39,757 nt of DNA from a virus. The translations under genes and the position numbers were made by a program. Below the pieces are notes generated by a model. The model saw only the letters and a program-made list of their open reading frames with translations. It had not been told where the DNA came from and did not search any database. Shown one piece after another: positions 21,987-22,978 of the stretch; the first letter of the stretch is position 1, and every line of letters begins with the position of its first letter. The DNA is taken from IMG/VR virus record IMGVR_UViG_3300028585_000011; one strand, written 5' to 3'.

Positions 21987-22376
21987 TTAGCGGAAGCCCT
22001 GCACCCATCTTCGCAGCGCCTCGACGTCGACGACGGAAAAGCCGGGGAAGATCTCGCGCGGCTGAATGTAGCTTTTGCCGAGCTCGAGTAGCCAACCGCT
22101 GCCGCCATACCAATTGATCGTCGGCCGCGTGAATTCCTCGCTGGGCGGTCCGAGTGTCGCCGCGACGAACGCCACAAGGCACCCGTCCGCGTCGCCGGCG
22201 TTGAGGAAGCGCAAAGCCTTCTCCTTTGCCGCCTGCAAAGCGCGATCGCGCGCAATATGCTCGCGGCCGTCGAAGCGCGGAAGCTTGCGCGTACGTCCGC
22301 CTCCAAAGCCGTTCACCATCCGCCACGTCTTGCCGCCCCCGCGAACGCCGATCGTCCCCTCGTACCGCGGGCTCAT
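21987..22376 (-). CDS. Hypothetical protein translationally coupled to the recombinase, 129 aa
   Basis: ATG at 22376 overlaps the recombinase stop (ATGA). The N-terminus is Gly/Arg-rich (GVRGGGKTWRMVNGFGGGRTRKLPRF). No firm motif. Confidence 0.5.
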   Translation of the reverse strand: MSPRYEGTIGVRGGGKTWRMVNGFGGGRTRKLPRFDGREHIARDRALQAAKEKALRFLNAGDADGCLVAFVAATLGPPSEEFTRPTINWYGGSGWLLELGKSYIQPREIFPGFSVVDVEALRRWVQGFR

Positions 22377-22978
22377 GCCTGCACCAAGCGCAGATCAGAG
22401 AAACCGCGATCGGCGTCTGCTGCTTCGCGCAGCTCCGTATCGAGTTCTTTGGCAATCCGGTAATAGGTCGCGCGGGTGATACCCATAGCCTTGACGATCT
22501 CATGCGGCCGCTGCCCGGCTGTGCGGAGCTGTGCGAGCAGCCTGCGATCAACGCGCTTCTTGCCGCCCTTGTACGTGCCGTTCGCGTGCGCCTTGCGAAT
22601 GCCCTCGAGCTGCCGTTCCTTGCGCAGATCGGTTTCGAATTCAGCGACGGCGCCGAGGATGCCGACCATCAACTTGCCGGTCGACGTCGACGTATCGACG
22701 CCGCCTTGCTGTAGACAAGTGAACGCGGCGCCGGCGTCGGTGATGCGCTGGAGGATCCCGAACAGGTCCGACAGCGATCGCGCCAAGCGGTCGAGCCTGG
22801 TGACAACCAGGACGTCGCCGGCGCGGAGCTGGTCGATCGCACGCTCGAGCTCGTCGCGGCCGTTCGTCGTCGTGCCGCTGCGCTTCTCCTGATAGATCTT
22901 GTCGCAGCCGACGAGCAGCTCGAGCTGCGCTTCAAGGTTCTGCCCGACCGTCGAGACGCGTGCGTAACCGATCTTCAT
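22373..22978 (-). CDS. Small serine recombinase (resolvase/invertase family), 201 aa
   Basis: MKIGYARVSTVGQ contains the catalytic Ser. VVTRLDRLARS and the E-helix GAVAEFETDLRKERQLEGI are present. The C-terminal HTH is PHEIVKAMGITRATYYRI. Confidence 0.85.
   Translation of the reverse strand: MKIGYARVSTVGQNLEAQLELLVGCDKIYQEKRSGTTTNGRDELERAIDQLRAGDVLVVTRLDRLARSLSDLFGILQRITDAGAAFTCLQQGGVDTSTSTGKLMVGILGAVAEFETDLRKERQLEGIRKAHANGTYKGGKKRVDRRLLAQLRTAGQRPHEIVKAMGITRATYYRIAKELDTELREAADADRGFSDLRLVQA

Follow-up and report, generated by a model that had tools for sequence, protein, structure and literature searches.

A small serine recombinase is a core gene of integrase-less sphingomonad podophages and may resolve their circular replicon

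The only recombinase we detect in a sphingomonad phage genome is a small serine enzyme that is retained throughout its clade. We tentatively propose, at somewhat less than even confidence, that it is a resolvase monomerizing a circular, iteron-driven replicon. The window, by which we mean the whole 39,757-nucleotide stretch of DNA that was analyzed (IMG/VR record IMGVR_UViG_3300028585_000011), covers a whole phage genome, a circle of 39,630 bp. Its bases 1–127 are identical to bases 39631–39757, which we take to be the overlap left on the circle by an assembler run at k=127. The host group is sphingomonad-type bacteria. The window contains a T7-like virion module (portal, PHROG 332; structural protein, PHROG 684; TerL), a lysis cassette, a tail fiber-sized ORF at about 8260–10431, and replication genes for a primase (PHROG 510) and a P4-like helicase (PHROGs 21086 and 35358). 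Primase, helicase and an iteron array make up a predicted autonomous replication module of the kind found in plasmid prophages.

The 201-residue recombinase (Table 1) matches the Pfam Resolvase domain PF00239 with residues 3–135 (E 1.2e-38) and PHROG 125, ‘DNA invertase’ (E 1.1e-54), and its HTH_23 match (E 2.3e-5) falls just short of the 24.6-bit cut-off, with a score of 24.5. The protein and Gin can be aligned over their full lengths (E 7e-24), and residues 3–178 align with residues 4–181 of gamma-delta resolvase (E 6e-23). Tyr-5, Arg-7, Ser-9, the RLDRLAR block (Asp-63, Arg-64, and Arg-67) and the E-helix are in register with both enzymes. The serine of the YARVST motif aligns with Ser-9 of Gin, and RLDRLARS and AVAEFETDLRKERQ match KLDRLGRS and ALAEVERELIIERT of Gin column for column. 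With a serine nucleophile, a D-R-x-x-R block, an E-helix, a short C-terminal HTH and a length within ∼180–210 residues, the protein is by its sequence a small serine recombinase. An earlier note on this DNA had named the gene from YARVST, RLDRLARS, the E-helix and the HTH, an identification borne out by the Pfam, PHROG and pairwise comparisons, and had assigned this gene and its downstream neighbor the correct coordinates and reading frames. It had also held that loss of the catalytic residues on careful alignment would speak against activity; these residues are intact in the alignments with Gin and gamma-delta resolvase.

Table 1. Features of the recombinase arm and its downstream gap (positions in the window)
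Feature	Position	Strand	Remarks
Convergent gap, 60 bp	21926..21986	.	After the 129-aa gene; hairpin with 10-bp stem, AAAGGGCGCC-tcgagg-GGCGCCCTTT
129-aa protein	21987..22376	-	Enlarged member of a ∼72-aa phage protein family ending RRW(I/V)xGF(R/N)
Small serine recombinase, 201 aa	22373..22978	-	PF00239, HTH_23, PHROG 125; Ser-9 nucleophile, E-helix, C-terminal HTH
81-aa ORF	22975..23220	-	Stop overlaps recombinase start by 4 bp; lower G+C; sequence unconserved among relatives
135-aa Cys-rich (CPEC...CCPKH) protein	23222..23629	-	Upstream of recombinase, same operon; PHROG 20494 at 3e-8
Start of minus-strand arm operon (ORFs of 60, 68, and about 82–118 aa)	23634..24346	-	ORF map, gene calls of L058/L059

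We scanned each window ORF of at least 250 residues with Pfam or PHROGs or placed it by synteny, and found no tyrosine or large serine recombinase, no ParA/ParB and no S24/HTH repressor among them. Domain scans of window ORFs detected no ParA, ParB, ParM, S24 repressor or HTH_3 protein. No second recombinase domain is present among the scanned or synteny-placed ORFs, in line with the earlier description of this gene as the sole recombinase of the genome, and the scans agree with its report that a tyrosine or large serine integrase, partition genes and a CI-like repressor are missing.

The closest recombinases are 55–71% identical to the window protein and lie on contigs of 38–42 kb (L001, L002, L003/L004, L005, L008/L052, and L045/L046). 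These phages form a clade of ∼40-kb podophages with a P4-like primase-helicase and an iteron region, and without a polymerase or an integrase. A minus-strand arm of small genes runs from the iteron array beside terS and converges on the primase-helicase operon, and all seven clade genomes carry the recombinase at the same position at the end of this arm. Backbone identity to the window is 62–82% for TerL (L001–L003 and L005) and 56–72% for the helicase (the same genomes and L008). Recombinase and helicase identities to the window are 71 versus 72% in L001, 62 versus 56% in L005, and 55 versus 56% in L008. The recombinase thus diverges in step with the core genes, which indicates that the clade has long retained it as a core gene and that it is no recent passenger.

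The phage-clade recombinases are monophyletic in our tree (support 97/89) and nested among alphaproteobacterial chromosomal and plasmid recombinases, with the window protein and those of L001–L003 forming a subclade (99/98). The nearest non-phage recombinases are found on alphaproteobacterial chromosomes and plasmids, small plasmids included. An alphaproteobacterial cellular or plasmid element may be pictured as donor of the gene to the ancestor of the ∼40-kb podophages, which would have inherited it vertically since. A 99/96 split places Cin, the Fels-2 invertase, KS14 gp6 and RSM Int on one side and the window clade with its cellular relatives on the other. Phylogenetic placement, which the earlier note had proposed as a check, thus groups the window protein with neither Cin-type invertases nor phiRSM Int, in a tree that is unrooted and includes only five references. 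Tn1721 TnpR is on the same side as the window protein of the strongest split in this tree, a weak grouping given the very long Tn1721 branch. The closest cellular recombinases (58–59% identical), from the Sphingomonas sp. AAP5 chromosome (L043) and from L044, end runs of small ORFs. A res-like TGAGAC multi-dyad array is located immediately upstream of the recombinase gene in L044.

The window recombinase comes next to last in a compact operon of small accessory genes, which reads away from the iteron region and divergently from iteron/terS, and it would be expressed from this position. The plus-strand TCAT at 22373–22376 corresponds to ATGA on the coding strand, where the recombinase stop overlaps the start of the 129-residue ORF; the coupling described in the earlier note is thus present in the sequence. 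The recombinase start is itself overlapped to the same extent by the stop of an unrelated upstream gene, and likewise in relatives, in which the slot of the 81-residue ORF holds unrelated ORFs of 82–144 residues. Coupling is thus a property of the compact operon and not special to the recombinase and its downstream partner. Further upstream, the Cys-rich protein is found in six of the seven clade genomes (39–50% identity in L001–L005 and L008 by tblastn; no hit scored in L045). A promoter scan of the arm returned nothing at the tool's threshold; by eye, TTGACT-N18-TATAAG is seen upstream of the first arm gene. The region between the iterons and this gene (24347–24660, alignment A5) contains the clade-conserved blocks GATCTGC.GGCAA..TGGC...GAAAGCAAGGGGC and a GATGATGA motif, and a TTGAC −35-like box is conserved there in the window and in L001–L003. 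At the other end of the operon, the hairpin in the convergent gap is probably a terminator. This gap is not conserved as a site, as the counterpart genes in L003 abut without one.

The N-terminus of the 129-residue protein is rich in Gly and Arg and predicted to be disordered, and the protein has no Pfam, PHROG, NCBIfam or PADLOC match. Its AF2 model is helical (pLDDT 63), and a Foldseek search of the PDB with this model returned nothing better than E 2.5. Orthologues in L001–L003 (40–43% identity) occupy the same position and have the same 4-bp overlap with the recombinase, in L045 the family is represented two genes upstream of the recombinase, and L005 and L008 have none; in five of the seven clade genomes, a family member and the recombinase belong to one operon. 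The family had looked tiny in a single-sequence search and with a four-sequence profile. A broader profile search found at least 370 relatives, mostly of ∼72 residues, with RRWIEGF(N/R) ends and on phage-sized contigs. The ∼72-residue core contains a conserved AKxRAL..L(D/N)AGD and a C-terminal (M/L)RRWIEGF(N/R) (window protein and P0124–P0245), and one member (P0130) bears a fused N-terminal zinc ribbon. Among four independent contexts that we examined, three (L054, L055, and L056) show no recombinase within 10 kb of the family member, and in the fourth, the unrelated phage L042, a large serine recombinase is encoded at a distance of 14 kb.

The earlier note had cast the 129-residue protein as an accessory or directionality factor. 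This is unlikely for a family that usually has no recombinase nearby and that two of the seven clade genomes lack, and the idea is weakened further because the upstream gene is equally coupled. The protein is most likely an independent, co-transcribed small early protein and not a recombinase subunit. That recombinase and RRWIEGF-family protein form a new regulated small serine recombinase system, in which the small protein switches direction or activity (for example between cyclization/monomerization and integration/excision), strikes us as very improbable; such a switch, if true, would imply a cryptic temperate or carrier lifestyle for the integrase-less clade. The two genomes without the 129-residue gene have a conserved ∼90-nt non-coding element after the recombinase (L005 10780–10880; L008 about 12985–13085, reverse strand), which reads ...GTTGGTTGCTC...GGCATCCTCTCCCAA... 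followed by a strong hairpin and a T-run. It may represent a small RNA or a structured 3′ end.

The window protein shares the fold and similar length of the invertases Gin, Cin, Hin and Pin. Of the solved structures, Gin has the lowest E-value, by a negligible margin, and ‘DNA invertase’ is the family name used by PHROG and in several source annotations. An enzyme of this type would flip a segment to switch a host-range, glycan-cassette or promoter element, and would have a Fis-dependent enhancer within or near its gene, although Fis sites are too degenerate to be recognized from sequence. A search for 20-mer repeats across 17.7–25 kb returned seven inverted and six direct pairs matching at 17 or more of 20 positions, versus 2.6 and 2.2 expected from dinucleotide shuffles. 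The excess comes wholly from the TGTTCCCA iterons at 24656–24925. The outermost of these, at 24660 and 24905, are separated by 245 bp and match in inverted orientation at 19 of 20 positions, which would favor an invertase. Once the iterons are removed, the counts are at chance (three inverted pairs observed, 2.6 expected), in agreement with the earlier failure to find gix-, hix- or res-like repeats by eye.

The iteron array (24662–24922) is conserved across the clade and is its sole clade-wide conserved dyad. We rejected it as a recombination site, as cousins of these phages that lack the arm have equivalent arrays there, built from 8-mers of their own. The iteron core of one such cousin (L009, GTTCCCA) is nearly the same as that of the window, yet this phage has no serine recombinase, which indicates that the iterons are read by another protein.

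Further evidence argues against inversion. Gene order around the recombinase is identical in the seven genomes, and two contigs of the same phage (L058 and L059) are 100% identical to and collinear with the window over 19067–26599. The ‘glycan cassette’ (17.8–21.4 kb), whose proximity had suggested a Gin/Cin/Hin-like arrangement with a glycan/receptor cassette, is missing from relatives that retain the recombinase. The true tail-fiber gene, which shows no alternative inverted C-terminal exon, is located 12 kb from the recombinase. The cin gene of P1 is directly adjoined by cix and the invertible segment; nothing comparable is present in the window, where we find neither inverted crossover sites flanking an invertible segment nor alternative fiber exons, and the 99/96 split separates the enzyme from Cin and the Fels-2 invertase. 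An invertase is thus not supported, and the inversion switch put forward in the earlier note, for which we find neither repeat pairs beyond chance nor rearranged relatives, appears highly improbable to us.

Arrays of 20-bp dyads with the pattern CATAG-N10-CT(A/G)TG, two to five dyads per array, are present in four relatives (L001 11357–11475, L003 18120–18280, L005 about 11030–11100, and L008 about 12778–12826). In L001, L005 and L008 the array follows the recombinase arm, within the convergent gap; in L003 it adjoins the g170 homologue. These dyads look like the binding array, operator or centromere-like, of a dimeric protein. CATAG-N10-CTATG arrays were discarded as the site of the window phage, as the complete window has none. 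A screen for 12-mers shared across genomes proved too noisy in this G+C-rich DNA.

The enzyme could alternatively be an integrase/excisionase that inserts the phage at a host site, possibly with the 129-residue protein setting direction. A parallel is phiRSM1/phiRSM3 Int (ORF14), a resolvase-like small serine recombinase that serves as the integrase of phages often found as prophages in host genomes (PMC4471427). Like the window enzyme, Int is the sole recombinase that its phage encodes, and the two proteins are 45% identical over the catalytic domain. The phiRSM attP is, however, annotated 50 bp upstream of ORF14 with a repressor adjacent, whereas the window gene has no upstream non-coding DNA to hold an attP and no repressor beside it, and the two proteins are separated in the tree.

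Backbones related to the window do belong to temperate, integrating phages. Distant cousins (helicase 34–44% identical) lack the arm, their helicase being followed directly by terS and TerL. Two of these are integrated in complete 3-Mb chromosomes (G277 and G292) and one in a 134-kb MAG contig, and four IMG/VR records of arm-less cousins are classed as proviruses. No arm-less cousin examined contains a serine recombinase. A tyrosine integrase is located at the prophage end in G277, and weak matches are located at the record ends of L009, L011 and L012; in all, four of the cousin proviruses have a full or weak tyrosine-integrase match and in two none was detected. In the latter (G292:C1, about 975,000–1,009,000, and G001:C23, about 72,000–105,000; loci L035–L041) no PF00589 or PF00239 match was seen in or near the prophage, and a divergent integrase or host Xer are possibilities that could explain their integration.

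The seven arm-bearing genomes, in contrast to these cousins, are all stand-alone contigs of 38.2–42.0 kb, none of them integrated. One (L008) has direct terminal repeats according to its IMG/VR class, with the serine recombinase and no tyrosine integrase. Searches with helicase patterns specific to the clade turned up no integrated member in 185,579 species (GTDB representatives, one genome each), IMG/VR, or JGI metagenomes, and the 401 genomes sampled from the host order yielded only cousins of at most 44% identity, none with the arm. ARAGORN calls a tRNA-Pro(AGG) at 33829–33908 (+). We do not retain this tRNA-like element as an attP; it matches no Rfam family at the gathering score and has no real match in 151 Sphingomonadaceae genomes. 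The large serine recombinase encoded alongside a 129-residue family member in L042 would fit a link between that family and integration, but most family members have no recombinase nearby. With neither an attP beside the gene nor att-bounded integrated copies found, a phiRSM Int-type enzyme is not supported. The small serine integration module of the earlier note is thus improbable in our judgment, even though the window holds no other recombinase.

A further reading is that the recombinase targets the DNA of the host or of competing elements, or serves mainly to regulate by binding DNA, within an early accessory/anti-defense operon. The arms of relatives carry counter-defense or ‘polyvalent-protein’ domains (LPD29, ArdC-N/MPTase(-PolyVal), PAPS-reductase-like, and DUF6884 genes), and dyad, repeat and motif-transfer searches found no cis site in the phage genome. 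Defense-like cargo also adjoins the cellular relatives, namely a SLFN/AlbA_2-HATPase gene in L043 and AAA and S8 peptidase genes in L044. On the other hand, PADLOC returned no defense-system hits, and all catalytic residues are conserved, which argues for genuine strand exchange and hence for paired sites. We know of no precedent for a resolvase-type enzyme acting on foreign DNA or as a regulator, and consider this explanation somewhat less likely than resolution, though worth weighing.

Resolution is the reading we prefer, largely by elimination of these alternatives and by analogy with plasmid prophages. The enzyme would act on two directly repeated phage sites carried by dimers or multimers among the circular replication products, or by a carrier form that resembles a plasmid, and recombination between them would restore monomers. 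Resolvases of plasmids and transposons (gamma-delta/Tn3 TnpR, Tn1721 TnpR, Sin, and RP4 ParA-type) have the same architecture and length as the window protein, but the window gene has no adjoining res site or transposase and is embedded in a phage early operon. A res site is usually found directly upstream of the resolvase gene, where the window has no intergenic DNA. Neither near the gene nor across 17.7–25 kb did any repeat or dyad other than the iterons rise above shuffled controls, and sites may be weakly symmetric or lie in coding DNA. Motif transfer from the cellular relative L044 revealed no TGAGAC cluster in any phage genome.

The window phage resembles KS14, phiCD38-2, D6 and the Bacillus plasmid prophages, tailed phages that have no working integrase and encode a Gin- or resolvase-like small serine recombinase. 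Such enzymes recur in phages kept as plasmids (KS14 (PMC3091744); phiCD38-2, D6 and Bacillus cereus plasmid prophages (PMC8026635)), and KS14 has been shown experimentally to persist in this form (PMC3091744). KS14 gp6 is 39.7% identical to the window protein and groups with the invertases in our tree, not with the window clade. Unlike the window phage, KS14, phiCD38-2, D6 and the Bacillus phages encode ParA or ParM, and in KS14 the repressor adjoins the recombinase; documented plasmid prophages almost always carry partition genes (PMC8026635). We found no relative in a plasmid state in PLSDB, where the best TerL match is 30% identical, so that both hallmarks of a plasmid prophage, a partition system and recovery as a plasmid replicon, were not found here. 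Resolution is also not needed for lytic packaging from concatemers. Multimer resolution is thus the part of the earlier proposals that survives, mostly by elimination, while the res site and partition system expected with it were not found.

The type of enzyme was already known, and the advance made here is modest. Small serine recombinases of phages are routinely labeled ‘DNA invertase’ or taken as integrases, and either label would mislead in the window clade. Our analysis also describes, for the first time, a family of some 370 small phage proteins that had gone unannotated. Taken together, the recombinase is a conserved core gene of phages never seen integrated, whereas their cousins that use tyrosine integrases do appear integrated. 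If it indeed monomerizes a circular replicon, these phages would represent a tailed-phage lineage with an episomal stage and no recognizable partition system.
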